A DNA stretch of 64,000 bases from Polyangiales bacterium (GTDB taxonomy: Bacteria > Myxococcota_A > Polyangia > Polyangiales > Houyiibacteriaceae). The notes under the pieces are model-generated. The model had not been told where the DNA came from and made no database searches. It worked only from the letters and a program-made list of their open reading frames with translations. Both the position numbers and the translations under genes were made by a program. Below, piece by piece: positions 5,432 to 64,000 of this stretch; position 1 is the first letter of the stretch, and each line of letters opens with the position of its first letter. The stretch is taken from positions 2,932,338 through 2,996,337 of the forward strand of contig OZ245758.1 of assembly GCA_965227405.1 (NCBI GenBank). The letters are read 5' to 3'.

Positions 5432-5507
5432 CTGAGCGGAATTCCCCGTGGATCCAGGGTGGATCGAGTCGTGCTCTGTACTGACGCAACTTCACAAGGA
5501 GTGTGTC

Positions 5508-7255: not shown

Positions 7256-7297
7256 CTCGGCGAATCTATCACTGCCGGTTCTGGTACGATTCGTTTC

Positions 7298-29918: not shown

Positions 29919-30572
29919 GTGCACGATGCACAGATCCAGGGATACACTGGAAGGGTGAGATCCTTGCTTGTGCTGGCAATGGCGCTCTCGCTGGGGGGAA
30001 CGGCGATGGCGCAGGAGGCTGTTCCGCAGCCGACCGACGACGGCGTTCCAGGTGCCGACGAGATTGGACGCGCAGAGTTTCTGCGTGGACGACGCGCCTA
30101 CGATTCGGGTGACTACGAAACTGCGCTCGACGCGTTTCAACGGGCGCTCGAGCTAACGTCACGACCTGCTCTTTACTACAACGTGGGTCTAGCACTTGAC
30201 CGTTTGCGTCGCGACGCTGACGCGCTTGCTGCGTACGAGCGCTACTTGGAGTTGGTCGAGGAATCCAACGAGCGACCGACAGTCGAAGCGCGCGTTCTAG
30301 CGTTGCGACGTGCACTCGAAGAGGACCAAGAGCGCTCCGCAGCGGCGGTTGCTGCGGCAGAGGCGGAACGCGAGCGCGCACTCCAAGAGGAGCGGGACCG
30401 TTTAATGGGCGCGAACCGAGCGAAACGTCGTCGCACAGGGCTCATCGTGGGGATCAGTTCAGCTGTTGTCGTGGGTGCTGTCGTGGCTGTGGTGATTATT
30501 GCGACCCGCGGAGGCAACAACCTAGAGCAGGGGGACTTCGGTCCCGCCAGCAGGGCTTTGGTGAGTTGGTGA
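29919..30572 (+). CDS. signal peptide / TPR-like / C-terminal TM protein
   Basis: Signal peptide (VRSLLVLAMALSLGGTAMAQEA). TPR-like YDSGDYETALDAFQRALELTSRPALYYNVGLALDRLRRDADALAAYERYLE, which is a paralogue pattern of 19821..20516. Coiled-coil/acidic linker. C-terminal TM GLIVGISSAVVVGAVVAVVII. Its stop overlaps the next gene's ATG in TGATG. Confidence 0.6.
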   Translation: MHDAQIQGYTGRVRSLLVLAMALSLGGTAMAQEAVPQPTDDGVPGADEIGRAEFLRGRRAYDSGDYETALDAFQRALELTSRPALYYNVGLALDRLRRDADALAAYERYLELVEESNERPTVEARVLALRRALEEDQERSAAAVAAAEAERERALQEERDRLMGANRAKRRRTGLIVGISSAVVVGAVVAVVIIATRGGNNLEQGDFGPASRALVSW

Positions 30573-33316
30573 TGCGAATCCGTGTGTTGAGTGTGCTCTT
30601 GGTTGCGGCGTTGGGATGCGGTGACGATCCCACCCAAATCATCGTGGAGATCTACGGAGCGGACGAAATCGTTCGCGACGTCACAGGTGTGCGTATTCGT
30701 GTTGAAGGCCGTGGCCGTGACGATGGCGACTTCAGCGACCCGCCGATCTACGTCACGGACAACGCTGTTCCTGCAGGCGCGTCGAACTTCCCGCTGACCC
30801 ACGTCATCGCGCCTTTGGACGGCGATGCGAACCGAATCTACCGCGTGACCGCACAAGGTTTGGTTTCGGACGCCACGGGCATCAGCGTGATTTCAGAAGC
30901 GCGAGCAATCTCCGGATTCATCAGGGGTGAAACCCGTGTGTTGAGGCTCTACTTGCCCGGGGGTCCGTGCCGGGATCGAACCTGTCCGGTCACACAGACC
31001 TGCGTGCAGGGTTCATGTGTCGACATCGTGGAGATCCCACCCGAACTTCTGCCTGGTCGAAATGGTGATCCCTTTGATGCCGGCGTGATGGACGTTGGTT
31101 TGGATACGATGGGCGACACGTGTGAGGGCGAAGGCGAGCCATGTGATCCCGAAGCGCTCTGCGAGACGGGCGTGACCATGTGTTCGGATGGCGAACCCGT
31201 TTGTGTGGGGACCGGTGAGGCACGTAGCGCAGGCACAGTGTGTCGCGCCGGCGACGGGGTGTGCGACGCCGAAGAGACCTGCGATGGCGAAAGCCTGGAG
31301 TGTCCTGTGGATGCACCTGTCGCGGATCTGACTCCATGTGGAGATGCCGGCGAGATCTGCGTTGGCGGTGTGTGCGATCTGTGCGACCCCAGTGCGCCCT
31401 GTTCGACAGGGAACGCCTGTGAGCGCGGTACACTGGTGTGCGAAGGCGAGCCAACCTGTGAGCCCAATGGTCCTGCAGACCCAGGCACGGTCTGTCGCCC
31501 TGCCGCCGGACTTTGTGATGCAGAGGAGTTCTGTGATGGAACGAGCCTCGCGTGCCCCGACGATGAGCTGAAAGTCGACGGTGCGATTTGCCGTGAAGCA
31601 GAGGGGCTCTGTGATGTGGCCGACGTCTGCGATGGGATGACCGTGAACTGTCCTGACGAGCTCGCGGATGCCACTGTGGAGTGCAACGCCTCGCAAGGCG
31701 TGTGCGATCCAGCAGAGATGTGTGACGGCGCGTCGAAGACGTGTCCCGCAGATGTGCTTTTGGGCAGCGACGATGTGTGTCGCCCCGGTACATCGGAGTG
31801 TGATGTTGATGAGACGTGCGACGGCATCAACGGCGCATGCCCAGAGGATGCGTTTGTCGACTTCGGTGGTTCGTGCGGGGCGGACGGCATGAACATTTGC
31901 GACGGGAGCGGCCGTTGCATTCCTCCCACGTGCGGAACTGAATGCAACACCGGACGCGCCTGCGAAGTCGGAATCGTGGACTGTCCAGAAGGCGAAGCGC
32001 CGCAATGCATTCCGGACCGGGTTCTAGGCGCTGGGACTCCCTGTCGTGCTTCCGCAGGAGTGTGCGACGTCGCAGAAACCTGCGACGGAGTGAACGGTGC
32101 GTGTCCCCCGGATTTGTTCGAGCCGGCTACGACCGTTTGTAACGCTGCGGTGGGTGCTTGCGATGTCGCGGAAACATGCACCGGGTCGGGACCAACTTGC
32201 CCGACCGATGCGGTGCAACCGTCAACGCATACCTGTCGACCAGCTGCAGGTGGGTGTGACGTTGCAGAGACTTGTAACGGCATGGACAAAGGGTGTCCTG
32301 CAGATGACCTGGCGACAGGAATCTGCCGACCTCCGCGTGGACCCTGCGACGTCGCTGAGGCATGCGATGGCGTGTCTGTCGACTGTCCAGACGATGTGTT
32401 GCGTGAAGACGGAGCCATTTGTCGTGCAGCCGGTGGTCTTTGTGACATCGAAGAGGTCTGCGACGGAGCCAATCCAACCTGCCCCACCAACGAGTTCGAC
32501 TCGGGCTCACTTTGCCGCGGTGCCGTCGACGACTGCGATGTCGACGAGTTCTGCTCGGGAAGCGCAGCGACCTGTCCCACCGATCAGTTTGAGCCTGCAG
32601 GGTTCGTCTGCCTCGAGTCGAGCGGGTTCGACTGTGAAGCCGATGCGGTGTGCAGTGGCACGGACCCCTTCTGTCCCGTTGGCGATGCAACGTGCTTCGA
32701 TCTCGTGATCAGCGAGGTGCTTCCTGAGGACACGATCACCAGTGGCCGGCAGGGCTTCGTCGAGATCTACAACACCAGCGATGACCCTTTGCTTTTGGAA
32801 GAGTGCGTTCTTCTCAACAGCGCAGGAGGCGTGACTCCTCTCGACAGCGGTGGGGTCGAAGGAGACGGCGGCATCCCGCCCCACGGGTTCTTCTTGGTGA
32901 GTTACGGCACTGCGGCGGCGACCGCGGACATCAATACGAACCAACCACACCCCGGCAACTTCGGTGGTGAGGTTGTCCTCGATTGTGAAACTTTCGCAAT
33001 CGATGCCTGTGCGTGGGCCCCCGGTGTGGGTATGGACGGTGGGATGTCGCTGGATGGTGGTGACACGATGGATGCCGGTGGCATCGGTGACGTTCTCGAA
33101 GGGCCGCCCGCAACGAACCCACCACGTGGTTTCTCGCTCGAACGGAAAGCATGCTTCGACTCAGATGAAGCGAGCATGCGTGGCGCCGGACGCGACGCGA
33201 CCTCCGGTAACTCCGAAGACACCGACGTCAACGAGGACGACTTCCTCAATCGGATGTCACCGCAGCCGCAGTCCTCGTCGAGTCCGCCTGAGACGCCAGC
33301 GATCTGTCCGTTCTAG
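30572..33316 (+). CDS. lipoprotein with about 16 Myxococcus-type cysteine-rich repeats and C-terminal lamin-tail domain (LTD)
   Basis: MRIRVLSVLLVAALGCGDD lipobox. Repeats of C(R/N)xxxGxCDxxExCDGxxxxCPxD match the myxobacterial disulfide-repeat family. The C-terminus VISEVLPE...GFVEIYNTSDDPLLLEECVLLN matches the LTD signature. Confidence 0.8.
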   Translation: MRIRVLSVLLVAALGCGDDPTQIIVEIYGADEIVRDVTGVRIRVEGRGRDDGDFSDPPIYVTDNAVPAGASNFPLTHVIAPLDGDANRIYRVTAQGLVSDATGISVISEARAISGFIRGETRVLRLYLPGGPCRDRTCPVTQTCVQGSCVDIVEIPPELLPGRNGDPFDAGVMDVGLDTMGDTCEGEGEPCDPEALCETGVTMCSDGEPVCVGTGEARSAGTVCRAGDGVCDAEETCDGESLECPVDAPVADLTPCGDAGEICVGGVCDLCDPSAPCSTGNACERGTLVCEGEPTCEPNGPADPGTVCRPAAGLCDAEEFCDGTSLACPDDELKVDGAICREAEGLCDVADVCDGMTVNCPDELADATVECNASQGVCDPAEMCDGASKTCPADVLLGSDDVCRPGTSECDVDETCDGINGACPEDAFVDFGGSCGADGMNICDGSGRCIPPTCGTECNTGRACEVGIVDCPEGEAPQCIPDRVLGAGTPCRASAGVCDVAETCDGVNGACPPDLFEPATTVCNAAVGACDVAETCTGSGPTCPTDAVQPSTHTCRPAAGGCDVAETCNGMDKGCPADDLATGICRPPRGPCDVAEACDGVSVDCPDDVLREDGAICRAAGGLCDIEEVCDGANPTCPTNEFDSGSLCRGAVDDCDVDEFCSGSAATCPTDQFEPAGFVCLESSGFDCEADAVCSGTDPFCPVGDATCFDLVISEVLPEDTITSGRQGFVEIYNTSDDPLLLEECVLLNSAGGVTPLDSGGVEGDGGIPPHGFFLVSYGTAAATADINTNQPHPGNFGGEVVLDCETFAIDACAWAPGVGMDGGMSLDGGDTMDAGGIGDVLEGPPATNPPRGFSLERKACFDSDEASMRGAGRDATSGNSEDTDVNEDDFLNRMSPQPQSSSSPPETPAICPF

Positions 33317-38682: not shown

Positions 38683-40182
38683 GTGCCCTCACCGCCTCCG
38701 CCGCCTGAGCTCGTTCGTGAGCTGGAAGTTCTGGTTCATGCGCAACACCCACTTCTCGCGGTGGAAACCGTCGAAGAGATGCGCGCTCAGACCATCTTCG
38801 CTTACGTGGCGGACCGCGTTGGGCTGCCGATGTTTGTGTGGAACCCCACGACCGGCCTGGCCATGCAGGGACCCGATGGCGGTCGACCCGTGGGTACGGA
38901 GAAGCCCACGCAGTGCTTGGCGTTCATCGAGCAGGCGAACCTCGAGGCTATCTTCTTCCTGCCTGGCTTCGACGACTTCGAGGATTCTGCGATCCACGCA
39001 CGAGTCAAAGAGATCTATCGCAAGTACTTCAAACATCGTGGACAGGTTGTGGTCACCGGTCCCTCGGTGGTTCTTCCTCCCGATCTCGAGCCGCTCTTTA
39101 CACCGATCGACATGCCCTTGCCTTCGCGTGATGCGTACCACCGGTTCGTGTCGGAACTGCTCAACGAGATCTCTCAACGTCGGCCGATTCAGGTCGACCT
39201 CACGAACGCGGACGTCGCCGAGTTGCTGCGTGCGCTGCACGGATTGAGCTTCTTCGAAGTGCAGAAGATCATCACGCGCGCGGTGATCGAAGATGGCCGG
39301 CTGGATACCGCCGATCTCAAAACCGTGCTCGCTGCGAAACAACGCATCGTCGAGCGCTCACGTTTGCTGGAGTACTTCCCGCACGCGGAACGGATGACCG
39401 ACATCGCGGGCTTGGGAACGCTCAAAGCGTGGCTTCGAAAGCGGCACAGCGCGTTTGCCGATCCGCAACGCGCTAAGGATTTTGGGTTGAGTCCACCCAA
39501 AGGACTGCTGCTGCTGGGTGTCCAGGGGTGCGGCAAAAGCGCGACGGCGAAAGCGATCGCTGCGGAGTGGCGCTTGCCGTTGATTCGCTTGGATCCTGGC
39601 AATCTCTACGAGAAGTTCTTTGGTGAGAGCGAGCGGAATCTACGCAAAGCGATCAAGGTCGCAGAGTCGCTTGCGCCATGCGTCCTTTGGATCGACGAGA
39701 TCGAAAAGGCGTTTGGTCGCGGCGACAACGATGGTGGAACGTCACAGCGCATCTTCGGAACCTTCTTGTCGTGGCTGCAGGAGAAGAAGGAGAGCGTGTT
39801 TGTGATTGCGACGGCGAACGACATCTCGTCGCTCCCGCCCGAGTTGCTCCGCAAGGGGCGTTTTGACGAGATCTTCTTTGTCGACCTACCCACGCGCGAT
39901 ACGCGTCGCAGCATCTTCGAGGTGCATTTGAAGCGTCGAAACCGCGATCCGAGTGGGTTTGATCTGGACACTTTGGCCGACACCACCGACGGGTTCAGCG
40001 GTGCGGAGATCGAACAGGTGGTGGTGTCCGCGTTGTACTCCGCGTTTGGTGCAGATACGGATATCGACACGGACTCGCTTCAGCAAGAAGTCGTCGCGAC
40101 ACGACCGCTGAGCGTCACGATGGCGGAGAAAGTACAGCAGCTTCGTTCGTGGGCCCACGAACGCGCAGTGCCCGCGGAGTAG
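38683..40182 (+). CDS. AAA-family ATPase, Ycf46-like
   Basis: C-terminal classical AAA module (GVQGCGKSATAKAIA, LWIDEIEKAF, sensor/arginine-finger region). An N-terminal domain of about 240 aa beginning ELVRELEVLVHAQHPLLAVETVEE, as in the Ycf46 family. Confidence 0.7.
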   Translation: MPSPPPPPELVRELEVLVHAQHPLLAVETVEEMRAQTIFAYVADRVGLPMFVWNPTTGLAMQGPDGGRPVGTEKPTQCLAFIEQANLEAIFFLPGFDDFEDSAIHARVKEIYRKYFKHRGQVVVTGPSVVLPPDLEPLFTPIDMPLPSRDAYHRFVSELLNEISQRRPIQVDLTNADVAELLRALHGLSFFEVQKIITRAVIEDGRLDTADLKTVLAAKQRIVERSRLLEYFPHAERMTDIAGLGTLKAWLRKRHSAFADPQRAKDFGLSPPKGLLLLGVQGCGKSATAKAIAAEWRLPLIRLDPGNLYEKFFGESERNLRKAIKVAESLAPCVLWIDEIEKAFGRGDNDGGTSQRIFGTFLSWLQEKKESVFVIATANDISSLPPELLRKGRFDEIFFVDLPTRDTRRSIFEVHLKRRNRDPSGFDLDTLADTTDGFSGAEIEQVVVSALYSAFGADTDIDTDSLQQEVVATRPLSVTMAEKVQQLRSWAHERAVPAE

Positions 40183-40209
40183 CCGTCAGGCGAAGTACAA
40201 GTGTGGTAG

Positions 40210-40635
40210 CTAAGGACAGGCGCGGTTGCAGGCGAAGACGCCGCCGCCGCAGTCTCGCGTGTCTCCGCACGCCGCCATGTTGCACTCGCCCGTCCCGTCG
40301 CAGCGCAGAACGCACTCGCCGGCGCCGCACGCGAGTTGGCAGTTGGCGTCTCCGGAACACGCGAGCTCGCAGCTAGCGTTGCGTCGGCAGCGCACGTTGG
40401 TCTGAGTCTGATCGGTGGCGGTGATCGCGCATGCCGAGCCAGCAACACACTCCGTGACACAACGATCGCCCTGACACTCGTAGTTGCACGTGCAGCCCGC
40501 TGCACACTGACAATCACCCACACAGATTGCCGTGCAGAAACAGCCGTCAGGACAATCCTCGGTCAGGTCGGGATCGACGACGACGAAGCAACCCGCGCCG
40601 AAGAGCAAAACGAAACCGAAGACAAGACGAAGCAC
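40210..40635 (-). CDS. small Cys-rich lipoprotein (141 aa, about 30 Cys)
   Basis: MLRLVFGFVLLFGAGCF lipobox, then a dense CxxxC / CxC pattern. Immediately downstream of, and co-oriented with, the Omp85 gene (4-bp gap). Confidence 0.55.
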   Translation of the reverse strand: MLRLVFGFVLLFGAGCFVVVDPDLTEDCPDGCFCTAICVGDCQCAAGCTCNYECQGDRCVTECVAGSACAITATDQTQTNVRCRRNASCELACSGDANCQLACGAGECVLRCDGTGECNMAACGDTRDCGGGVFACNRACP

Positions 40636-40638
40636 GAT

Positions 40639-43600
40639 TCAGAATAGCCCGATGCTGAAGTGGAACGATCCGAAGGTTTCCTCGCCGAGATAGTCTCGCG
40701 GTGCGAGCAGGAACCCAAGGTCGAACGCGATGGGACCGACCGGTGTGCCGAAGCGTAAACCGAACCCGGCGGTGGGGCGAAGGTCCAAAGGGTTGAGTGG
40801 TGGTTCAATCCACAAGTTACCGAGATCGACAAAGAGCCCGCCGTTCAGATCACCCACAATCGGGAACCGCAGCTCACCGCGCAGCACCATGAAGGTATCG
40901 CCACCCTGCACAATACCGCTGCTGTCGAAGAGTTCGGGGTTGTCCTGAATTTCGTCGGCGAGATCTTGCGGCACCATCGCGTCTTGCAGGTAGCCACGCA
41001 CAGTACCCACACCACCGACGAAGAACGAGCGGTTGGGATACGTTTCGGAGTTGTCTTCGAGATGGATCACGCGACCGAGTTTGAGTTGCGTGGCAAACAC
41101 GAAGCGTTCGCGTCGATCGAGCGGTACATATCCGCTCGCCGTGAGCTGCACGCGCATGTGGTGACTGAAGAAGCGCTGGAGCTCGCCGGCGCGTTCGATC
41201 TCTTCAGCGGTTAATGTGCGTGCCCATTCGGCACTCGCCGATACAAAGAACCCCCGTTTGGGAACGAAGGGGTTGTCGCGTCGGTCCAAGCTGACAAACG
41301 CACGTCCCGCGACAAGCGTGGTCTCGCCCTCGGGAACGCGTAGCAAGTTGCGGAGTCGAATGTTGCCGGCAACCTGTTGAAGGATCTCTTCGTAGCTCTC
41401 ATCGCCAAGCACTTCGACGTCGTTGTTCTCAACGTCGGCACTGAACTGGGTGGACACGCTGCGATGAGGACGCCACCCAAACGTCAGGTCGACCGAGTTC
41501 TTGGTGAAACCGAAGTTACGTTCGTTCTCGCGCTGGTGAATGCCGGCCAGTGAAGTACGCACATTCGGCAACCCGATGAAGGGGATGTCGAACGTCAGGG
41601 CAACCCGGCGCTCAAGTCGGTCCTGAAGGCTCAGGCTTTCGAAACGATCTTGGAGAACATTGTCGGGATCGTTGAAGAAGATGAACTGGTAGCCGATTTG
41701 ACCAGAGAGTCGGAACCCGATCGCAGTCCCACCCAGGTTTCGATACCCGTACTCCAGACCGAAACGCGCACCCTGCGCAGTGGACACACCGGCGCGAAAA
41801 TCCAGGTACTGGTTGTCCTGCTCGACGATGCTGACGGTGAGTGGTTTGACGCGCTCGGGGAGATCCGGGTTCTGCGGCGCCACGCTCACGCTTGTGAACA
41901 CGCCCAGGTTGAGCAGCGCATCCTGAGCACTGCGCAGCGCAGCGGGCCGCAACAGGTCGCCTTCGCCGATGGTGAGTACTCGACGGATCAGGCGTTCGTT
42001 CGTGGTGTCGTTACCTTCGATCGTGATGTCACCAACGTGAACTTCGAAGCGTTCGCTGACTTGCATCAACACTTCGGCGCGGGTTCGATCGCCGCTGAAC
42101 CGAACCTGCGTATCGACGCTCGCGTAGTAGTACCCGCGATCTTGATACGCCTCGACGATGCGGCTCTTGGCTTGTTCCAGCGCGAAGTAACTAAACGGTT
42201 GGTCGCGCTCGAGTGCGGCCGCTTCCAACACCTCTTGGGTTGTCAGTGCTTCATGGCCACGAAGTTGAACTCCGTGCAGCAGGGCACGCGGACCTTCAGA
42301 AACCGGAACCACGACGATGGCGCGATGGCGCCCGACGGTTTCCAAGCGTGCCGGACCGACGCGTGCATCGAGAAACCCTTCAGCTTCGTACAACCCCTGC
42401 ACGTGTTCGATCGCGCGCTCGTAGGCACTCGGATACCAAATCTGAAGTGGGTTGGTGTCGGGCGGGCGTGGTGTTTCGCGGTCGTGGTCTTGGTTGCGCG
42501 CAAAGATGCGGTTGGCGGTATCCGTATCGACCGGGTCGAGGATCGAGTTGGCTGCGATCGCTTCGTCGAGAAACGAACCCATCTGGCTTTCGAGAAAGCT
42601 CTGGTCGAAGTGGCGTGCACCGGGAAACGCACGTGCAACAACGCGAAGTTGATGGCCCGCGCGGATTTCGACCACCAGCTCTGCGCGATCGCGATGGCGG
42701 CGATTGGGAACGATGTGCAGCCGCACTCGCGCGTCGTTGAACCCTCGTCGTTGATAGAGATCGACGATGCGATCTTGGATGGCGCGAATGCGTCCGCGTG
42801 AGAGGCGTTCGTCGAAGACATCCATCTCGTCGAACACCCGGCTGCGGTCCAAGGGATCGGGCGTGACGATTCGCAGCGTGTAGCGTGGACCCACGTGACT
42901 GGGCAGTGCGATCAACACACCGGCGGGTCGTCGAAGGATCTCCACCGGGCCCACGCGTGCTTCGAGCCAACCCGCTTCGCGCAGTCGCCCTTCGGCTTTG
43001 CGCACTGCTTCGTCGACTTCACGCTGGTCGTAGATATCGCCGCTTGAGAGACCCATGGCACGGCGCACGCCACTTCCTGGGGGTGGTGCGTCCCCGTCAA
43101 AGCGAATCCCCAGAACGCGCGTCGGTTCGTTCTCGCGGACCCGAACGATCATGACCTTGCGGGCGGGATCGTCGGTGTCGCGGAGTTCCAAGTCGGCGCT
43201 CATCGCTTCGTAGCCGCGTTCGGCGTACACGCTCTTGAGTTGAGCGGCGAGCGTGCCCAAGTCGGCGCGCTCGATTTCCGTGCCTTCGTGGAGCTGGAGT
43301 TCGCGAAGGATCTCGTCGTCGTCCAATACGTCATTGCCAACGACGTCCACGCGATTGAGCAGTAGCCTAGGAATCAACCGCGCCGTGAGCCGAACGTCCT
43401 CGCCCACTGGCGTTGCATCGAGCTGCACATCAGCCCAGCGACCTGTCCCGATGAGTTGTTGAATGGTGTTGCGTAGCAGGCGCCGACTCAGACGTGCGTT
43501 GATCGGGATGCCAATGTCGCGAGGCCGCGTGGTTCGCGCTGCGGTGCCTGCAACCACCACTTCCACGATGCGTCGCCCGTAGAGTTGGGGACTCTGTGCA

Positions 43601-43668
43601 GACCCTCCGGAGGCCAGCACGAGCGTCGACCCGATGAGGAAGACGAGAATCGACGCGCGGAAGGCCAT
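40639..43668 (-). CDS. Omp85/BamA-family outer-membrane protein (POTRA repeats plus 16-strand barrel)
   Basis: Signal peptide. An N-terminal region of about 600 aa with repeated POTRA-like beta-alpha-alpha-beta-beta units. A C-terminal barrel with alternating hydrophobic strands ending in the beta-signal FSIGLF. Confidence 0.8.
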   Translation of the reverse strand: MAFRASILVFLIGSTLVLASGGSAQSPQLYGRRIVEVVVAGTAARTTRPRDIGIPINARLSRRLLRNTIQQLIGTGRWADVQLDATPVGEDVRLTARLIPRLLLNRVDVVGNDVLDDDEILRELQLHEGTEIERADLGTLAAQLKSVYAERGYEAMSADLELRDTDDPARKVMIVRVRENEPTRVLGIRFDGDAPPPGSGVRRAMGLSSGDIYDQREVDEAVRKAEGRLREAGWLEARVGPVEILRRPAGVLIALPSHVGPRYTLRIVTPDPLDRSRVFDEMDVFDERLSRGRIRAIQDRIVDLYQRRGFNDARVRLHIVPNRRHRDRAELVVEIRAGHQLRVVARAFPGARHFDQSFLESQMGSFLDEAIAANSILDPVDTDTANRIFARNQDHDRETPRPPDTNPLQIWYPSAYERAIEHVQGLYEAEGFLDARVGPARLETVGRHRAIVVVPVSEGPRALLHGVQLRGHEALTTQEVLEAAALERDQPFSYFALEQAKSRIVEAYQDRGYYYASVDTQVRFSGDRTRAEVLMQVSERFEVHVGDITIEGNDTTNERLIRRVLTIGEGDLLRPAALRSAQDALLNLGVFTSVSVAPQNPDLPERVKPLTVSIVEQDNQYLDFRAGVSTAQGARFGLEYGYRNLGGTAIGFRLSGQIGYQFIFFNDPDNVLQDRFESLSLQDRLERRVALTFDIPFIGLPNVRTSLAGIHQRENERNFGFTKNSVDLTFGWRPHRSVSTQFSADVENNDVEVLGDESYEEILQQVAGNIRLRNLLRVPEGETTLVAGRAFVSLDRRDNPFVPKRGFFVSASAEWARTLTAEEIERAGELQRFFSHHMRVQLTASGYVPLDRRERFVFATQLKLGRVIHLEDNSETYPNRSFFVGGVGTVRGYLQDAMVPQDLADEIQDNPELFDSSGIVQGGDTFMVLRGELRFPIVGDLNGGLFVDLGNLWIEPPLNPLDLRPTAGFGLRFGTPVGPIAFDLGFLLAPRDYLGEETFGSFHFSIGLF

Positions 43669-43697
43669 TCAGACCTGGTTTATCCGAAGAGCGACAG

Positions 43698-44339
43698 CTA
43701 GCGGTAGCTTTCGATCACATCCAGGACGATGGGGCTCGACCAGTCGAAGGCGCCGTCGTAGCGGACACGCACAACCCCGTCGCGATCGATGATCCACGTC
43801 TCAGGGTACAGCTCGGTGCCAAACATGCCCTCGGTGACCGACTTGTCCGGGTCGAAGAGGTGCAGGAGCTTGGGATCGGCCGGGAGCACAGTGTTGACCG
43901 CTTCCCATCCAGCGTCCGTGGAGATGGCGACAACCTCGACGTCGTCCCAACGTTCGGAGAGCTCGGCGAGAATCTCGAGCGAGGGCATCTCTTCCAGACA
44001 GGGCGGACACGTGATGCTCCAGAAGTTCATCAGCACGACTTTCCCGCGCTGATCCGAGAGCTTCCATTCGCGTCCGTTGCGATCGACAACCGTGAAGTCC
44101 GGTGCGAGTCGTTCGCGACCCATGTAGTGCGGGAAGCCGCCCGCGCTGTCGGTCAGTTCGTCGTAGCGTGCTTCACCGAGCATGGCGCGAAGCGGGCCTT
44201 CTTCGGCACGCCGCTGTCCATCGAACACGGCGTTGCCCATCGCCCACAACAAGGGAAGCCCGATGACGGCAGCAGCGAGCGCAGCGTAGGTCTCGCCGCG
44301 GCGAGCATCGTCGGACTTGCTTTTGGTCGAAGTACTCAT
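43698..44339 (-). CDS. TlpA/ResA-like thiol:disulfide oxidoreductase (thioredoxin fold), membrane-anchored
   Basis: N-terminal TM (YAALAAAVIGLPLLW) and the WSITCPPCLEEMP CxxC active site. Its ATG overlaps the upstream gene's stop in ATGA. Confidence 0.8.
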   Translation of the reverse strand: MSTSTKSKSDDARRGETYAALAAAVIGLPLLWAMGNAVFDGQRRAEEGPLRAMLGEARYDELTDSAGGFPHYMGRERLAPDFTVVDRNGREWKLSDQRGKVVLMNFWSITCPPCLEEMPSLEILAELSERWDDVEVVAISTDAGWEAVNTVLPADPKLLHLFDPDKSVTEGMFGTELYPETWIIDRDGVVRVRYDGAFDWSSPIVLDVIESYR

Positions 44340-44848
44340 GAATCGACGTGACCTTGTGCGGGGGTCCAGGTGGACATCGGATCCTCCAGCACTGGAGGGC
44401 GTACCTTACTCGTTTTGATCCGAAAGAAGGGACCTTCTTCGTCTTCTTCCATGAGGGTCGCGAGTTGGTGCATGGCGTTGCGCTCAAAGCGTGCGGGAAC
44501 TCTCCCTCCGCGCACATCGCACCAGAGCGCGTCGTGGGGATCCAGGCGCAGTGATGATTCGTCGAGCGCTTCTTCCCGACCTCCCGAAAGACTCAGCCAG
44601 GGAGTTTCGCCCTCGAATCGAACTGCACGCACCACGTAGGGCGGACCTTCGATGTGCACGAACGCCCAGTTGATCTCGTTGCTCAAACAGAAGCGACCAT
44701 CCGGTGCGCGATCGATCCAAGCGTCGAGTCGTTGCACCAAACGCGGATGCGTAATGGCTTCTTCGCCATCGAACCAATGACCTTTGCGATCGCGTCGAAT
44801 CTTGGTTTCGCGGGTGAAACCGCGTTTGAGCATCTCCGCCGGATCCAT
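44336..44848 (-). CDS. hypothetical protein (about 170 aa; possibly DUF1285-like)
   Basis: I chose the internal ATG at 44848 (MDPAEMLKRGF...). Only 2 nt separate it from the upstream BNR gene's stop. The family assignment is tentative. Confidence 0.4.
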   Translation of the reverse strand: MDPAEMLKRGFTRETKIRRDRKGHWFDGEEAITHPRLVQRLDAWIDRAPDGRFCLSNEINWAFVHIEGPPYVVRAVRFEGETPWLSLSGGREEALDESSLRLDPHDALWCDVRGGRVPARFERNAMHQLATLMEEDEEGPFFRIKTSKVRPPVLEDPMSTWTPAQGHVDS

Positions 44849-44850
44849 GA

Positions 44851-45726
44851 CTAGTCGAGGTCCTCCCAATCGGAACTCGATGTCGAAGCGCCTGCGCCTT
44901 CGAAGCGATAGATCTTGCCGCCCTGACACCCGACCAAGAGTCCGTCGTCGATGGCCAACACACTCCAAAAGTGATCTTTGACCTTCACGTCGATCAGTTC
45001 CCAGTCGCGTCCGTTCTCCGAGAACATGACGACTCCGCCAGCGCCCACCACGACAAGACCTCCTTCGATGACCGCCATGTCTTCGAGATCCGCACCGGTC
45101 GGCGTGCGCACGCGCGTCCAGTTCGTTCCCGTGTCGTCGGAGGTGAACACTTGGCCGCCATCACCGATCAGGACCAATGAGCCCTCTGGCGTTTGAGCCA
45201 AACCGGTGAGCGGTGCTTCGCGATCAACCTGCACTTCGACGAAACGCTCTCCATCGAGCACGTACATTCCGTCGCCGTAGAAAAACAATCGGCCGCCGAC
45301 GTCGTCGCACTTGAGCATGCGTGCACTGCGATGCACGCGATCCCAGGTTTGCCCTTCGTCGTCGGAACGCACCACGCCCGAATCGCACACCGCCCACAGT
45401 GCGCCGTTCGCATCGAGCACGCGATAGAGACAATGATTGACCGCAGAGTCTGCGATCTCCCAGGTGTCACCGCGGTCGCGCGTGATCGCGATCGTGCCGT
45501 ACTCGCCCACCACGATGACGTCGTCTTCTGCTCGTGCGACCAAACCACGAAGTCCCGAGGTCTTGGGGGTGCTTGTCGCCTCGAAGCTCCGACCGTCGGA
45601 AGAGCGCAGAAACGTGGTCCGGTGGTAGGTGCCACCCGATGCGAAAAACCACCCGTCAGCTTCATCGATTTCAGCAATGAAACCTTGGCCGGAGCCCCCG
45701 GAATGGACGACGTGTGCGCGATACAT
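44851..45726 (-). CDS. BNR/Asp-box repeat beta-propeller protein (Ycf48/HCF136-like)
   Basis: At least four SxDxGxTW Asp-box motifs (TRDRGDTWEI, SDDEGQTWDRV, TSDDTGTNWTRV, SENGRDWELI) spaced about 40-60 aa apart. Confidence 0.65.
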   Translation of the reverse strand: MYRAHVVHSGGSGQGFIAEIDEADGWFFASGGTYHRTTFLRSSDGRSFEATSTPKTSGLRGLVARAEDDVIVVGEYGTIAITRDRGDTWEIADSAVNHCLYRVLDANGALWAVCDSGVVRSDDEGQTWDRVHRSARMLKCDDVGGRLFFYGDGMYVLDGERFVEVQVDREAPLTGLAQTPEGSLVLIGDGGQVFTSDDTGTNWTRVRTPTGADLEDMAVIEGGLVVVGAGGVVMFSENGRDWELIDVKVKDHFWSVLAIDDGLLVGCQGGKIYRFEGAGASTSSSDWEDLD

Positions 45727-45823
45727 GGACCGAAACTACCCCTGGAACTGATCGTTTGGGGCGGGTGTTGCGTCTCAGCAAGCGCAGATCGGTGTGAGAA
45801 CTGACCAAAAACCCCCGAAAAGA

Positions 45824-45869
45824 GCCGGAAAAGACCAGGCGTGATACGTTCCTCTTTCCGGCTTTTGCC
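45824..45869. promoter_or_regulatory. hairpin (GCCGGAAAAGA / TCTTTCCGGC, 18-nt loop) followed by a TTTT tract in the tamB 5' leader and divergent promoter region
   Basis: Read directly. 10/11-bp complementary arms at 45824-45834 and 45853-45862, TTTTGCC after, and the stem ends 24 nt upstream of the TTG start of the TamB-like gene. The reverse strand also shows a U-rich flank. Confidence 0.3.
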
Positions 45870-45886
45870 CGCCCTGGAGTGCCCTT

Positions 45887-48800
45887 TTGACCGTTGATTC
45901 GACGTCGATTCCCGATGCGTCCGCGCCGGACGAAGGGACCGATCGGATCGAAGAGCCCGAGAAGCCCAAATCTCGGCGCAAACGGGCACGTGTGGGTCGC
46001 ATTCTGCGTCTCACCACCTACCTGGTGCTGATCACGCTTTTCGTCGGCATGGCGATCACGCAGGCCGACTGGGGCGAACGGAAGATCAGCGAGATGGCGG
46101 TCGAGGCGCTTCGCAATGAGCTGGGTCTCGAAGCGACGTTGGGCGATGTCGAAGTTCGCTACGCGTTCTTTCCTCCAGAGGTGTTCGTCCACGTGACGGA
46201 CATTGATCTGGACCACCCCGAGTACGGCGACTTCGCAGAAGCGGGCGCTCTGGTGATTCGACCTTCGCTCTTGGCGTTCCTGTCTGGACAAGTCGACTTG
46301 CAGCGCATCGAACTCGCCGCGCCGACACTCCATTTACAGATTGAAGACGGGCGTATCGTAAACCTTCCGACGCTTCCCGAAACGCAGGGTGGAACCACCG
46401 AGCTTCCGTTTTCGCGCATTGCAATTCGCGAAGCCGAAGTGGATGTCGATGCAGGCGAACTGGGGCAAGGCGCACTGCGCGATCTCTCGCTCACGATCGA
46501 AGCCGATGGCAGCGAGATGGATATCGAACTCGACTGCGAAGAGGGCTGGGTTGAGCACTTGGGCGGTCGCGACACGCTTCAGCGTTTGTTGTTCGAAGGC
46601 GAGATCGACTTGGATGAAGAAGTCGCCGACATCGAACGCGCGGCTCTTCGCACACCCTACTTCCGAACGATCGTGCGCGATGCCGTGGTGTCGTTCGACT
46701 TGGAGCGCGGCTATGCAGGTAACTTCTTCGCGCGTTTGGATCTGGCTCAAATCGAGCGTTTGCCTATCGAGGTAGGGATTCCGCTTTCGGGTGTGGTCGA
46801 AGTGGAAGCCGATGTGCGCGGGCAAGGCGCCAAGCCCGAAGGCGAAGGCCAAGTCCGACTGCTCGACGTTCGCATCGACGACAAGTGGGGCCTCGGCGAT
46901 GAGATGGCGCTTGAGGTGGCGGCGGACACCGAGCGTGTGGAGATCCGCGAAGGCAGCGTCGCGCATCTACGTCACACTGGCCACGTCGACTTGCTCGCAT
47001 CGGTTCAACTGGATGCGGAACGTGGCTATCCGCTCGAGCTTGGTGCGGACATCCACAGCCTGAACCTTGGCGCGTTGATGGACCAACTCGGGGTGACACG
47101 AAACTCGATCATCAACTGGCCCATGAGCGGCCGCGGCGAGCTGCGCGGAACGCTCTCACCCTTGGCGATCGAAGGACCGCTCAACATTCGAAGCGAAGGG
47201 TTCCTGGTAACGATCGACCCTTGGCACCAGCGTAACGGTCGTCGCTTGATGGGCGTGGAGCGCGGCACGATTCGCGGCACGTGGCGGTTTGATGAAGAGG
47301 CAGCGAAGTTCCTCAACATGCACGTCGATACGGGCCGTTCGCAAGTTGATGTGCCTCTGGTTCACTTGGGTTTTGACAACCGCGTACGCGTCGAAGGCAG
47401 CAGCACGAACATCAATCTGGCTGACATCTCGCCCTTCACCACGTTTGAGATGGCGGGCGTGGGTTCGGCGAACGTCGTCCTCACCGGAACGTTCTGGGAT
47501 CCGGAAGTTCGCGGCAGTACGAAGATGCGCGACTTCGCGTTCGACACCTTTCCCATGGGTGACGTCGAAACCGACTACTTCATGCGCAATGACTACCTTG
47601 CGGTGGTCTTCCCCAACGTACGGGCCGAAAAGAACACCAGTCGCTACCGCATCGACGATTTGGTGTTGGACTTCAAGGACGAACGCATCGAAGTCACCGG
47701 GCATCTGCGCGCGAGTCGGATGACGCTGGAGGACGTCTATCACGTCTTTCACTACGAGAACGACGAACGCTTTGGAGCGGTTCAAGGTGTTGCGCGTGGC
47801 CACATGACGCTGCGCTACACGTTTGATTGGCCGCGTGACGGACCCAACGGAACGTTCGAAACCAACATGGACTTCGACATCCTGGGTGCGACGGTTACCG
47901 ATATCGAGTTCCAAAGCGGGCAGTTCGCCGGGCGATTGCTTTGGCGGGACTACACGCAGGGTCTCGATGGCGCCGAGCTAACGATCGATCATCTCGAACT
48001 GCGCAAGGGCGACGGCACGTTGGCAGTCGCGGGTGCGATTCGACCCGATCGTGCCGGCACACCCACGCAGCTGCATCTGACTGTGAGTGCCGATCAGTTG
48101 GCGATCGCCGAGACCGAAGGCATCAACGAGAGCCTCCCTGAGCTTCAAGGGATCTATTCGGTGTTGGGAGAGATTCGAGGCACACCTTCGGTGCCACGTG
48201 CGCATCTCGACCTGAGCTTTACGGGCCTGCGTTGGGACAACACGTTCTTGGGCGATGCGCGTGCGTACGTCCGGCTCACCGATCGAAGCGACCCCTGGGT
48301 GCGCGAAGCGGCGCAGTGGGATGAAGTGCCCGAGGACGAACCTTGTGCGCATGCCCGCTACGGTTTGGCGCGTGGACGTTGGCGTCCGGATCCTCCGATT
48401 CGAACCGCGGATGGCATGGCACCGGCACTGGAAACGCCGATGGCCTATCTCGTGTGTGGAGAGGGCATGGGCGGTGAGCTCGCGGTCGACATGGCGATGG
48501 GTTGGACGGACGTGTATCCGCTCCGTGGCGTGATCGACTTCAAGCGAATGGAGCTCGATCCGATTCTTCGCCAAGCGGTCCCGGACCGCGATCTCGGTGG
48601 AAACGTCAGTGGCCGAATTGCGCTGACGGCGGGCGACATGTTGCGCGATGGTTCGCTCGGCGGTTGGGTTCGCCTGAACCGGCTTCGTCTCGCAGCACGC
48701 GATGCCGTGGCCGATCGTCGCTTCCGGATTCGGAACGACGGGCCGATCGACATTCGACTTGAGCGTGGAGGCTTTACGGTCAACCGCGCTCGGCTCGCGG

Positions 48801-50209
48801 GTCCGGGCACGCTCTTGGCGGTGAGTGGCGGCGGTGACCAACGCGGCCAGCTTGGGATGCGCGTGGATGGAACCGTGGATCTTCGCGCGCTGGAAACGCT
48901 GTCGACGGAAGTCGCGCACAGCAGTGGCGAGTTGGCGGTGCGCGTGGACATCAACGGCACGGCGAGCGATCCGACCATTCACGGAGACGCAGAGATTGCG
49001 GGTGGGCGCGTATTGTTGGCGCAGATGCCCTACGTGGAGATCGAAGACCTTTCGGGACGCATCGATTTCAACCGACGACGCGCCGAGTTTGAGAACTTCC
49101 AAGCGCGCATTGCAGGTGGTGCGTTCCGGATGAACGGAGCGTCGACGATTCGTGGTGGTGAACTGCGCAACTATCGTTTCGATATGCGTTTGCGCGACGC
49201 GTTGTTGCGACCTGAGGAGGGTGTGCGTTTGGGGCTCGACGGTGACGCGCAGTTCACGTGGGAAGCCGGACAGCGACTTCCTCGCCTCGAGGGGGAACTG
49301 CGTATCGCGCGTGGTCGCTACAACCGCCCGATCCAACTTTCACCCACGCTCGGGCAGCTGTACCGCCCACAACGCGCCGAGGTCGAGCGCTACGACCCCG
49401 ATGCGGACAACATCGAGGTCGACCTACGCATTGTCGATCGCGGGTCGTTCAGGATTCGAAACAACCTGTTGGATTTGGATCTGCGAATCGACGACTCGGA
49501 TCGTCCCTTCCGGGTGGTGGGAACCGACCAACGCTACGGTGTGCTTGGACGCCTGGAAGTCGATCGAGGAACCGTTCGCTTCCGAAATACGAACTTGGAT
49601 GTCACGCGCGGCGAGATTCGGTTCAACGACGAAACACGCTTGGATGCGAGCTTCGATGTGTTGGCCGAGACCGAGGTGCGGCGTCAGCAAACCAGTGCGG
49701 ATCTGACGGCACCGGCGTGGCGTGTTTCAGTGCGTGCGCACGGCAACATGGATGCGTTTCGCTTGGATGCGAGCAGTCAGCCGCAGCTTTCGCAAGAGGA
49801 CCTGATGCTCCTGCTCACGGTTGGAATGACCTCGGCCGAAGCGGCGCAGCTCGAAGCGGGTGATGTGGGTGGAACGGCGCTCGAAGCGTTGAGCGCGTTG
49901 GCCGGCGTGAACGAAGAAGTGACCAACGCCGTGCAGGTGATCGACGAGTTCGCGATCACCACGCGCTACTCACCCGTGACGGGTCGTCCAGAGCCGATGG
50001 TGACGGTGGGTAAGCGGATTACAGACCGCGTGCGACTGAGCGCGGCGACGGGGCTGACCGGTTCGGAGCGAACGTTCCAAACGGGCGTGGAGTGGCAGGT
50101 CGGCGACCAGACGAGCTTCCAGGTGCTGTACGACAACATCAACCGAGAGAGCGCGTCGTCATTCGGTAACGTTGGTTTGGACTTTCACTGGCGGTTGGAG
50201 TTCGAGTAG
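45887..50209 (+). CDS. TamB-like translocation and assembly module protein (AsmA-like, C-terminal DUF490)
   Basis: 1440 aa. N-terminal TM anchor (LTTYLVLITLFVGMAIT) and long beta-rich repetitive body. C-terminal ...VGKRITDRVRLSAATGLTGSERTFQTGVEWQVGDQTSFQVLYDN... is typical of the TamB C-terminus. Confidence 0.8.
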   Translation: MTVDSTSIPDASAPDEGTDRIEEPEKPKSRRKRARVGRILRLTTYLVLITLFVGMAITQADWGERKISEMAVEALRNELGLEATLGDVEVRYAFFPPEVFVHVTDIDLDHPEYGDFAEAGALVIRPSLLAFLSGQVDLQRIELAAPTLHLQIEDGRIVNLPTLPETQGGTTELPFSRIAIREAEVDVDAGELGQGALRDLSLTIEADGSEMDIELDCEEGWVEHLGGRDTLQRLLFEGEIDLDEEVADIERAALRTPYFRTIVRDAVVSFDLERGYAGNFFARLDLAQIERLPIEVGIPLSGVVEVEADVRGQGAKPEGEGQVRLLDVRIDDKWGLGDEMALEVAADTERVEIREGSVAHLRHTGHVDLLASVQLDAERGYPLELGADIHSLNLGALMDQLGVTRNSIINWPMSGRGELRGTLSPLAIEGPLNIRSEGFLVTIDPWHQRNGRRLMGVERGTIRGTWRFDEEAAKFLNMHVDTGRSQVDVPLVHLGFDNRVRVEGSSTNINLADISPFTTFEMAGVGSANVVLTGTFWDPEVRGSTKMRDFAFDTFPMGDVETDYFMRNDYLAVVFPNVRAEKNTSRYRIDDLVLDFKDERIEVTGHLRASRMTLEDVYHVFHYENDERFGAVQGVARGHMTLRYTFDWPRDGPNGTFETNMDFDILGATVTDIEFQSGQFAGRLLWRDYTQGLDGAELTIDHLELRKGDGTLAVAGAIRPDRAGTPTQLHLTVSADQLAIAETEGINESLPELQGIYSVLGEIRGTPSVPRAHLDLSFTGLRWDNTFLGDARAYVRLTDRSDPWVREAAQWDEVPEDEPCAHARYGLARGRWRPDPPIRTADGMAPALETPMAYLVCGEGMGGELAVDMAMGWTDVYPLRGVIDFKRMELDPILRQAVPDRDLGGNVSGRIALTAGDMLRDGSLGGWVRLNRLRLAARDAVADRRFRIRNDGPIDIRLERGGFTVNRARLAGPGTLLAVSGGGDQRGQLGMRVDGTVDLRALETLSTEVAHSSGELAVRVDINGTASDPTIHGDAEIAGGRVLLAQMPYVEIEDLSGRIDFNRRRAEFENFQARIAGGAFRMNGASTIRGGELRNYRFDMRLRDALLRPEEGVRLGLDGDAQFTWEAGQRLPRLEGELRIARGRYNRPIQLSPTLGQLYRPQRAEVERYDPDADNIEVDLRIVDRGSFRIRNNLLDLDLRIDDSDRPFRVVGTDQRYGVLGRLEVDRGTVRFRNTNLDVTRGEIRFNDETRLDASFDVLAETEVRRQQTSADLTAPAWRVSVRAHGNMDAFRLDASSQPQLSQEDLMLLLTVGMTSAEAAQLEAGDVGGTALEALSALAGVNEEVTNAVQVIDEFAITTRYSPVTGRPEPMVTVGKRITDRVRLSAATGLTGSERTFQTGVEWQVGDQTSFQVLYDNINRESASSFGNVGLDFHWRLEFE

Positions 50210-50335: not shown

Positions 50336-50749
50336 TTACTCGTGGATCTCGATCGCTAGCTTCCGCACGTGTTGTTTTCGTAGTTCGTCCATCAGTTGCA
50401 CGACTCGTGCGTGAACGACTTCTTCGTCGGCTCGAATCACTGCCGATGTTGCGCCGGACGAACGGACTCGATCGCTGAGTTCTTCGAGCGTGATCGTCTC
50501 CTCGTCCAAGTGCAGCGTTCCGTTTGCCAGCACGTGTAGACGCAAGGGTTCGACACTGCCGGTCGGCTCTCCCGACGAGGGTACTTGGACAGGAATCTGA
50601 GCGAGTGCTGCGGTCGCCGCGACCATCAGAACGACAAGCAGGACCAACACGACATCCACCAGAGGGGTGACGTTGATCCGCTGGATCAACTCGTCGTCGT
50701 CATCGAACGTGCGCACTCCCTCATCGGACCCTGAAAGCCCACGCATCAC
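50336..50749 (-). CDS. exbD: ExbD/TolR-family biopolymer transport protein
   Basis: A single TM preceded by INVTPLVDVVLVLLVVLMV and a periplasmic domain ending VRADEEVVHARVVQLMDEL, the canonical ExbD/TolR pattern. Confidence 0.8.
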   Translation of the reverse strand: MMRGLSGSDEGVRTFDDDDELIQRINVTPLVDVVLVLLVVLMVAATAALAQIPVQVPSSGEPTGSVEPLRLHVLANGTLHLDEETITLEELSDRVRSSGATSAVIRADEEVVHARVVQLMDELRKQHVRKLAIEIHE

Positions 50750-62014: not shown

Positions 62015-62665
62015 GTGCGCGCGCTCTTCCTCGGCAACAGCTACACGTTCTACAACGACGTTCCAGGACAAGTTCATCAGCTCGCCGCGGAATCGGGCGT
62101 GAACATCGAAGTCGACCAGGTGGTTGAAGGCGGCGCGGACTGGTCGCTCCACGCAGGTCGCCTCGGTGGACTGGAACGTATTCGTAGCTCGCAATGGGAC
62201 GTGGTCGTTCTTCAAGGACGAAGTACCGACCCGCTTCTCAAGTCACGCCGGTTTCACAAGTACGGAGCGATCCTTGGCAAGGCGGCGCAAGACTGCGGTG
62301 CTCGCGTGCTCCTCTATCAAACCTGGCCGTGGGCGAGTGACCACCCAAGCTACGCACACCGTTGGTCCAAACGATCCCCTCAAGCATGGTTGGACGCGGT
62401 TCGAAGTGAGTACGCCAAGCTCGCGCGGACACTAAGCGTTGAAGTTGCGCCCGCTGGCGATGCGTGGTCGATGGCTCTGAACCGACTCGACCTCGAACTT
62501 TACGACGAGGATCGACACCACGCGTCAGCGCTGGGGAGTCACCTGAGTGCGTGTGTACTGGTTCGAACGATCACGCGTTGTGACCCTCGCCGACTCGCGT
62601 GGTGTCCCGACGATGTAGATGCGGGCGACTCGTCCAAACTCAAAGCCATCGCGGCTGAGGTTTAG
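62015..62665 (+). CDS. SGNH/GDSL-like hydrolase domain protein
   Basis: The N-terminal LFLGNSYT block resembles the SGNH Ser-containing block I. Its size and the downstream DxxH-like region are weakly supportive. Confidence 0.4.
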   Translation: MRALFLGNSYTFYNDVPGQVHQLAAESGVNIEVDQVVEGGADWSLHAGRLGGLERIRSSQWDVVVLQGRSTDPLLKSRRFHKYGAILGKAAQDCGARVLLYQTWPWASDHPSYAHRWSKRSPQAWLDAVRSEYAKLARTLSVEVAPAGDAWSMALNRLDLELYDEDRHHASALGSHLSACVLVRTITRCDPRRLAWCPDDVDAGDSSKLKAIAAEV

Positions 62666-63558: not shown

Positions 63559-63613
63559 GGTTGTGCTTCCATGTGGACGAGGAGAGGCTACCAGCCCAAC
63601 AGGAGTTGCAGTC

Positions 63614-64000
63614 ATGGCTGTGAAGCGAGCGTTGATCCGGGAAGTGCGAGCCGCGCTTAAGTCTGTGGCTGTCAAAGCAGACGCAGCGCCGATGCAGGCG
63701 TACATGAAGTCGGAGATGCCCTACTACGGCGTCAAGAAGCCTGCGCGAGTCGCTGCGTTGAAACCTGTCTTCGAAGCGCGACCGATCACCGAGTGGGAAG
63801 ACCTTCGCGACACCACACTCGAACTTTGGCGCAAAGCGAAGTTTCGCGAAGAGCGCTATGCCGCGTTGGATCTGACGCGTCGTCGACAACACAAAGGGCA
63901 TCTCACGATGCGCGCGATGCCGATGTACGAAGAGATGATTGTGAGTGGCGCGTGGTGGGATTACGTCGACGAGATTGCGGCGCATCGAGTGGGCGCGATT
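63614..64000 (+). CDS. DNA alkylation repair protein (AlkD/HEAT-like family), 3'-truncated by window end
   Basis: An AGGAG RBS at 63601, 8 nt before the ATG. The open frame runs to the window edge. RALIREVRAALKSV...MQAYMKSEMPYYGVKKP...LELWRKAKFREERYAALDL...WWDYVD matches the DNA_alkylation (PF08713-type) pattern. It is absent from the ORF track because no stop codon falls in the window. Confidence 0.6.
   Translation, partial: MAVKRALIREVRAALKSVAVKADAAPMQAYMKSEMPYYGVKKPARVAALKPVFEARPITEWEDLRDTTLELWRKAKFREERYAALDLTRRRQHKGHLTMRAMPMYEEMIVSGAWWDYVDEIAAHRVGAI

Follow-up and report, generated by a model that had tools for sequence, protein, structure and literature searches.

Genes at the locus

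We analysed a stretch of 64,000 nucleotides of a Polyangiales bacterium (contig OZ245758.1), called the window below, with regard to a single locus: the gene of an outer-membrane protein of the Omp85 family (omp85), the divergently transcribed tamB gene, and the smaller genes that lie between and beside the two. Two of the latter, which encode a DUF1285-like and a TlpA-like protein, are referred to together as the cassette. An earlier note on this DNA had described six genes here, and all of them are present at its coordinates in the list of open reading frames (ORFs). The features of the locus are as follows.

40210-40635, minus strand: gene of a Cys-rich lipoprotein, 141 aa, GTG start (ORF list)
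40639-43668, minus strand: omp85, 1009 aa (ORF list; Pfam POTRA and Omp85)
43698-44339, minus strand: tlpA-like gene, 213 aa (ORF list; AhpC-TSA/Redoxin match)
44336-44848, minus strand: DUF1285-like gene, 170 aa (starts at an ATG inside a longer ORF that begins with TTG)
44851-45726, minus strand: bnr-like gene, 291 aa (ORF list; weak PSII_BNR match)
45727-45886, no strand: divergent intergenic region between bnr and tamB, 160 nucleotides (from the coordinates)
45887-50209, plus strand: tamB, 1440 aa (ORF list; PF04357)

The junctions were read from the sequence. The TAG of the bnr-like gene is followed after 2 nucleotides by the ATG of the DUF1285-like gene, whose stop codon overlaps the start codon of the tlpA-like gene as ATGA. 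Another 29 nucleotides separate the TAG of the tlpA-like gene from the ATG of omp85, and 3 nucleotides lie between the TGA of omp85 and the start codon (GTG) of the Cys-rich gene. The 2-nucleotide gap, the ATGA overlap and the divergent region of 160 nucleotides had been described in the same way before; the other two gaps, previously given as 30 and 4 bp, are 29 and 3 nucleotides long. All six ORFs show a coding-type composition (GC1>GC2<GC3) in DNA of about 60% GC. A scan of positions 39900-46100 revealed neither a sigma-70-like promoter nor a convincing terminator above shuffled expectation.

Gene neighbourhoods in related genomes

A scan of contigs with a single protein returned no relatives of the locus, and its alignment-based repeat gave 80 species-level loci. 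All Omp85 relatives come from Myxococcota, mostly from Polyangia (metagenome-assembled genomes labelled as Sandaracinaceae and Polyangiaceae). A tree built by neighbour joining from 81 Omp85 sequences falls into two clades: clade A includes the Omp85 of the window, with identities of 41-85%, and clade B consists of Polyangiaceae sequences with identities of 31-33%. The synteny was analysed for the 37 clade-A loci that have at least 8 kb of sequence upstream of omp85, and neighbours were counted within 10 kb of this gene.

In 26 of these 37 informative loci tamB adjoins omp85, and the two genes can be co-directional (often overlapping), divergent or convergent (the last of these in L015, L016 and L028). 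A distant Myxococcota locus (L089, with the Omp85 protein P0065, 26% identity) likewise has tamB followed by an overlapping omp85. Furthermore, two proteins predicted from JGI metagenomes, P0062 (1477 aa) and P0077 (1748 aa), combine TamB (DUF490), POTRA and Omp85, in this order, in a single polypeptide; they may be genuine TamB-Omp85 fusions, or else gene calls that were merged. The overlapping genes and the fusion ORFs support a functional unit of TamB and Omp85 across the phylum. In summary, the link between tamB and omp85 holds across Myxococcota and is an arrangement that is already known, since tamB-bamA operons have been found where TamA is absent (Heinz et al. 2015, PMC4494059; Iqbal et al. 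2016, PMC5582053), for example as BB0795/BB0794 in Borrelia burgdorferi (PMC4494059, PMC5582053). The distant locus L089 also has a full tolQ-tolR-tolA-tolB set about 5-8 kb from tamB-omp85.

The DUF1285-like/TlpA-like pair is found in 18 of the 37 loci, and in 17 of the 37 both tamB and the cassette are present. Seen from tamB, 17 of the 26 loci with this gene also have the cassette, against 1 of the 11 without it. The two cassette genes are direct neighbours with the same orientation in 20 of 21 loci. Most often [tlpA<-DUF1285<-] stands divergently to [->tamB->omp85]; in this layout tamB and omp85 often overlap or lie a few nucleotides apart, and the distance from the cassette to tamB is estimated at no more than about 150 nucleotides in 9 of 14 divergent loci. 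The cassette is kept even when Omp85 identity is down to 41-50% and the majority of the other flanking genes differ.

The layout of the window (tamB<- divergent from ->bnr->DUF1285->tlpA->omp85->cys) was seen only in one close relative, the 83%-identical L001. One inversion of the [tlpA-DUF1285-tamB] block can explain how the common layout was converted to that of the window and L001, and a second small inversion can explain the layout of L003 and L006 (tamB<-tlpA<-DUF1285<- divergent from ->omp85). What the earlier note had called an Omp85-centred operon is a derived, recent rearrangement, and the ancestral gene-order partner of the cassette is tamB and not omp85. The combination of an Omp85 with a TlpA-type reductant, which had been singled out as non-standard, is recurrent and not a one-off, but it is tamB that the cassette goes with, usually in divergent orientation. 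Of the two proposed companions of omp85 the TlpA-like gene does recur in relatives (as part of the pair in 18/37 loci), whereas the gene of the Cys-rich lipoprotein recurs in L001 only. A more-than-chance neighbourhood is borne out for tamB, omp85 and the DUF1285-like and TlpA-like genes, but not for the BNR-like and Cys-rich genes. In the literature searched we found no report of a link between bamA or tamB and a TlpA-type protein or DUF1285; judging by synteny, a cassette beside tamB in Polyangia would be an arrangement that this literature does not describe.

The encoded proteins

In the Omp85 protein a signal peptide is followed by seven POTRA domains and then by a barrel; there is no Cys. 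Pfam finds POTRA domains (E = 1e-46) and the Omp85 domain PF01103 over residues 683-1008 (E = 2.7e-31). The AlphaFold2 model, for which 56 homologues were used and whose mean predicted local distance difference test score (pLDDT) is 86, has seven consecutive beta-alpha-alpha-beta-beta units with a pLDDT of about 90. Their approximate bounds are residues 31-100, 101-180, 183-259, 261-338, 341-455, 462-540 and 543-617, and the fifth (341-455) holds a low-confidence insert. They are followed by a barrel of 16 strands (residues 620-1009), in which the VRGY motif of loop 6 is located at residue 890; R891 is invariant in the 56 homologues.

BamA has five POTRA domains in its proteobacterial archetype, with three to seven reported across phyla, and TamA has three. 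Counting these domains had been suggested as a way of telling BamA (five) from TamA (three), and the count of seven fits neither. By far the top-scoring NCBIfam model is BamA (TIGR03303, 252.8 bits), while the TamA equivalog NF047950 gives 95.3 bits against a cut-off of 625. A Foldseek search with the model returned BamA structures only at ranks 1 to 48, and TamA of E. coli (4c00) at rank 49. On these three grounds, that is, seven POTRA domains instead of three, the low TamA score and the Foldseek rank, an assignment to TamA is rejected: the Omp85 of the window is BamA-like and not TamA-like. What it does have in common with TamA is the genetic link to tamB. The idea of a TAM-like (TamA/TamB) module holds insofar as TamB and an Omp85 form the assembly module, but its Omp85 is not of the TamA kind. 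An Omp85 with seven POTRA domains, Mxan5763, has been reported in Myxococcus xanthus (Arnold et al. 2010, PMC2878562; PMC6604945), and seven is also the number reported for the Myxococcus BamA (PMC6604945).

The earlier caveat that the window does not decide between BamA and a second paralogue is still correct, since the window covers 64 kb of 9.07 Mb. It is possible, and we say so tentatively, that the protein is a specialised, TamA-analogous BamA paralogue for TamB and that another part of the 9.07-Mb genome codes for a separate housekeeping BamA. Up to three groups of BamA paralogues with differing POTRA numbers are known in Myxobacteria (Heinz and Lithgow 2014, PMC4104836), so that a second BamA elsewhere is a real possibility. 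Furthermore, the score of 252.8 bits is under the BamA equivalog cut-off of 297.15, which counts against taking the protein simply as BamA; NCBI labels its relatives just "BamA/TamA family" or "POTRA domain-containing"; and the 64-kb window has no skp/lpxD/fabZ context, the canonical gene order of bamA being rseP-bamA-skp-lpxD. On the other hand, the family is single-copy in each genome of the 80 species-level loci, with one exception (a near-identical duplicate in Polyangium jinanense). Among word-sharing matches at E <= 1e-3, a search of limited sensitivity, there is no other Omp85 from the contig of 9,074,070 bp, and the window itself contains no second one. The seven-POTRA protein is moreover the one that is treated as BamA in M. 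xanthus (PMC6604945). In loci without tamB a crude heuristic gene call found no skp/lpxD-type context either. Because the family is single-copy in the 80 loci, BamA is the best match in family and fold, and the seven-POTRA architecture is that of M. xanthus, we lean toward the main, vertically inherited copy of BamA. Main copy or paralogue alike, it is this Omp85 to which TamB has its genetic tie. As to the exception, the near-identical long Omp85 loci of Polyangium jinanense (L083 and L084) are on two scaffolds, tamB was detected upstream in one of them only, and they represent either a recent segmental duplication or a redundancy of the assembly.

The TamB protein matches the C-terminal TamB/DUF490 domain PF04357 at residues 1070-1435 (E = 2.1e-37, model positions 2-379 of 381). 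From about residue 39 there is a hydrophobic segment (Kyte-Doolittle value 2.06), a putative membrane anchor, and the N-terminus has a weak DUF748/AsmA-like match in Pfam. The TamB equivalog gives 37.6 bits against a cut-off of 825, and a phmmer search against solved structures gave no match. There are three Cys residues, two of which form a presumably periplasmic pair 37 residues apart: C820 is kept in 33 of 34 and C857 in 34 of 36 aligned orthologues, across both Omp85 clades, while the third (C217) is not conserved. The pair is conserved equally well in loci that lack the cassette. It may be a structural disulfide or possibly a redox site. Directly 3' of tamB there is a lone gene of the ExbD/TolR family (50336-50749, minus strand), which has the same position in L001.

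The first protein of the cassette, 170 aa long, had been called unknown, and on its own it has indeed no Pfam match at E <= 0.01. It is not an orphan, however. When 39 homologues are combined into a profile, this matches 2re3, a DUF1285 structure (E = 8.8e-5), and with an AlphaFold2 model (pLDDT 89.8) Foldseek finds 2re3 at E = 3.4e-9 (template-modelling score 0.62) and 2ra9 at E = 9.7e-7; precomputed matches to PF06938 exist for a few of the homologues only. The protein is a divergent member of the DUF1285 fold. Two Cys residues are near-invariant in its subfamily, C54 and C110, and the first of them aligns to a Tyr of 2re3.

The second protein of the cassette matches AhpC-TSA/Redoxin in Pfam (E = 2e-16). 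Its active site reads WSITCPPC (108-114), and all 21 orthologues have the motif W-x3-C-x-P-C. None of the NCBIfam equivalog cut-offs is reached (ResA, 60 bits vs 170; TlpA, 55 vs 230; DsbE, 40 vs 123). The closest solved relative is a thioredoxin-family protein of Geobacter (3kcm, E = 6e-22), and others are ResA, TlpA and CcmG. According to hydropathy, residues 21-39 form a hydrophobic segment preceded by K/R residues, a putative anchor or signal; a periplasmic location and a role as a reductase are predicted on this basis. Among the genes of the 64-kb window there are no ccm, res, sco or cox genes and no CcdA or DsbD gene. For the DUF1285-like protein and the BNR-like protein, hydropathy showed no hydrophobic segment at the N-terminus (no export signal in the former and no signal peptide in the latter), so both are probably cytoplasmic.

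The two remaining genes of the locus are recent, lineage-specific additions. The BNR-like protein, a candidate beta-propeller of the BNR/Ycf48 type, matches PSII_BNR (PF14870) with 31.9 bits (cut-off 27), only over residues 22-101, and its Pfam matches to BNR, Sortilin and DUF6242 are under their cut-offs. The model BamI_Bacteroidota was rejected for it, at 18 bits against a cut-off of 370. Among 89 loci the gene occurs only in L001 (69% identity); its place between tamB and the DUF1285-like gene is due to an insertion specific to this lineage.

The Cys-rich lipoprotein has a lipobox-like FGAGC and 25 Cys residues, fewer than the number of about 30 given before. It has no match in Pfam or NCBIfam, and the gene is absent from all loci except L001, where the orthologue is 67% identical and keeps 25 of 25 Cys but is not called in the public annotation. 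Substitutions between the two genes number 31, 25 and 68 at codon positions 1, 2 and 3. The ORF is a real gene, as can be concluded from the orthologue, the conserved Cys residues and the bias of substitutions to the third position. In both genomes it starts 3-4 nucleotides past the stop codon of omp85. A scan for Cys-rich ORFs beside omp85 in all loci gave no consistent partner, and is too noisy in high-GC DNA. The protein belongs to a family of 44 representative clusters (P0168-P0211) of 73-467 aa, with a C-terminal Cys-rich module that ends in ...DCGGGV.ACNRACP at the very C-terminus and for which there is no Pfam model; most of the ten members that we inspected have lipoprotein-type signal peptides. 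The proposal that this lipoprotein is a dedicated substrate is not supported, as the gene is found in the window and L001 only and Cys-rich exported proteins are frequent in the window.

Several of the latter are encoded outside the locus. A predicted lipoprotein of 916 aa (30566-33316, plus strand) has 80 Cys, seven Disintegrin domains (PF00200, E = 1.5e-52) and a weak match to the lamin-tail domain. In a myxobacterium this is an adhesion module of eukaryotic type; L001 has a gene with these domains at the matching position. Two further Cys-rich ORFs (6293-7837 and 20939-22153, both on the plus strand) have 26 and 28 Cys, a coding-type composition and no Pfam domain. Cys-rich exported proteins thus appear to be common in the source genome, which makes a Cys-rich neighbour of omp85 unremarkable. 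On the other side of the Cys-rich lipoprotein gene, and convergent with it (27 nucleotides between the stop codons), lies the gene of an AAA+ ATPase of 499 aa (38683-40182, plus strand). Two other genes are unlinked to the locus: a homologue of the LpxR-family outer-membrane lipid A deacylase (62662-63705, minus strand, E = 8e-44) and a small OMP_b-brl protein (5448-6062, plus strand).

Interpretation and comparison with known systems

We consider it probable that the locus is a Myxococcota TamB-Omp85 pair for outer-membrane biogenesis, joined in Polyangia by a facultative DUF1285-like/TlpA-like cassette next to tamB. In Myxococcota, TamB would be partnered by a long BamA-type Omp85 with seven POTRA domains and not by a TamA with three. 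By analogy with the TAM (translocation and assembly module) and BamA-TamB systems, TamB would be anchored in the inner membrane and span the periplasm, and its C-terminal DUF490 domain would dock on the POTRA arm of Omp85, a physical contact that we infer. The Omp85 barrel would then insert beta-barrel proteins, and the complex probably also moves lipid to the outer membrane. The cassette often kept beside tamB in Polyangia consists of a presumably cytoplasmic DUF1285-like protein and a translationally coupled, putatively periplasmic TlpA/ResA-like thiol reductase with a CxPC site. It is usually transcribed divergently from a short intergenic region shared with tamB, and the two may be co-regulated in envelope biogenesis or redox maintenance. 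In the lineage of the window, an inversion of [tlpA-DUF1285-tamB] may have put the cassette upstream of omp85, and the BNR-like and Cys-rich genes would have been added later.

Several observations weigh against giving the cassette a place in this picture. Nine of the 26 tamB-omp85 loci have no cassette within 10 kb; an abundant marine lineage (L087) has the cassette without tamB and omp85; and in L086 the DUF1285-like gene is found by itself. In the intergenic regions between cassette and tamB from 15 loci, the only shared motifs were GC-rich k-mers, none of them in more than 6 of the 15. The rearrangements in which the four genes stay together are all local inversions, and these maintain proximity without any need for selection. 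Finally, the gene of the AAA ATPase, which is unrelated to the other genes, recurs within 10 kb of omp85 in 7 of the 37 loci, so that some of the synteny in the clade is simple inheritance.

One alternative is that the cassette has no functional relation to TamB and Omp85, serves the maturation of cytochrome c or copper centres or the response to oxidative stress, and owes its position to an inherited adjacency that is selectively meaningless. We regard this as somewhat unlikely. The solitary cassette of L087, the inertia demonstrated by the ATPase neighbour and the fact that local inversions can explain every layout seen are all in keeping with it. So are the ccmA/ccmB-like ABC genes about 5 kb upstream of the cassette in L088 (4056-5416), the sole hint at cytochrome c maturation, and the oxidative-stress signalling that was proposed for DUF1285 in the paper on the structures of SPO0140 (2re3) and Sbal_2486 (2ra9; PMC2954208). 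However, an adjacency without meaning does not account well for a cassette that accompanies tamB in 17 of 26 loci but occurs in 1 of 11 without this gene, that persists at 41-50% Omp85 identity while most other flanks differ, and that retains very short divergent intergenic regions.

At the other extreme, and as a refinement of what the earlier note had proposed, the TlpA-like reductase could work within the TamB-Omp85 pathway, in a dedicated redox-assisted assembly with the DUF1285-like protein as its cytoplasmic regulator. Its substrates would be C820 and C857 of TamB, kept reduced or correctly paired, or else Cys-rich lipoproteins and outer-membrane proteins that are reduced or isomerised. 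The cassette does track tamB down to about 41% Omp85 identity and through three gene arrangements, its CxPC site is invariant, the TamB Cys pair is conserved (33/34 and 34/36), exported proteins with many Cys appear to be abundant in the genome, and in the window and L001 the Cys-rich gene begins right behind omp85. Still, Omp85 itself has no Cys, and the TamB pair is kept equally well where the cassette is missing and may therefore be an ordinary structural disulfide. The cassette is also found away from tamB (L087) and is lacking in one third of the tamB-omp85 loci, the Cys-rich lipoprotein is confined to two close relatives, and the window encodes no CcdA or DsbD as an electron donor. There is no precedent in the literature searched, and local inversions hold genes together without selection, with the AAA neighbour as an example of synteny inertia. 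We therefore think this reading distinctly unlikely, as is, in general, any direct action of the cassette in the TamB-Omp85 pathway.

Even less probable, in our view, is the boldest version, in which the cassette is a redox control module of TamB-BamA: the CxPC reductase would act on C820/C857 of TamB or on Cys-rich outer-membrane lipoproteins passed on to the seven-POTRA BamA, the Cys pair of the DUF1285-like protein would sense or relay the redox state, and outer-membrane biogenesis would be thiol-gated. What keeps a direct functional link alive is that the Cys pairs of both TamB and the DUF1285-like protein are conserved. A loose co-regulation, or a common role of the cassette and TamB/Omp85 in the envelope, is plausible.

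The known core of the locus, a BamA-type Omp85 with TamB, adds a lineage to the view of BamA as the ancestral partner of TamB. If the link to the cassette is functional, it would give DUF1285 its first concrete pathway context and point to a redox control of the TamB/AsmA-type envelope bridge, with the conserved Cys pair of TamB as a direct testable target. If it is not, we are looking at an ordinary neighbourhood of envelope-biogenesis genes.

How does the locus compare with systems that are already known? With the TAM of E. coli it shares a TamB homologue with a C-terminal DUF490 domain and a putative anchor at the N-terminus, which is paired with a POTRA-bearing Omp85 barrel. It differs from it in the Omp85 protein, which has seven POTRA domains instead of the three of TamA, scores 95 bits against the 625 of the TamA equivalog, and meets TamA only at rank 49 of the fold search. 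In the BamA-TamB operons of the Borrelia type, too, a BamA-type Omp85 is tied to tamB, and in relatives both genes run in one direction, often with an overlap. The Omp85 of the window has seven POTRA domains and not five, the genes of the window are divergent instead of forming one operon, and the cassette has been added as a neighbour. Mxan5763 of M. xanthus, with which we compared the protein by its published description, agrees with it in phylum, in the seven POTRA domains and in the BamA subfamily.

For the cassette, the comparison has to be made protein by protein. The TlpA-like protein has the thioredoxin fold and the W-x3-C-x-x-C site of TlpA, ResA and CcmG (DsbE), with a putative N-terminal anchor, whereas it falls far below their equivalog cut-offs, has no ccm, res, sco or cox neighbours and is always paired with a DUF1285-like gene. 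The DUF1285-like protein, in turn, has the same two-domain fold as classical DUF1285 (PF06938) and matches it in sequence at the level of profiles. While the reported neighbours of the classical proteins are Nudix hydrolases (PMC2954208), the subfamily of the window adjoins a TlpA-like gene, carries two near-invariant Cys residues, and is divergent enough for a single sequence to miss the Pfam model.

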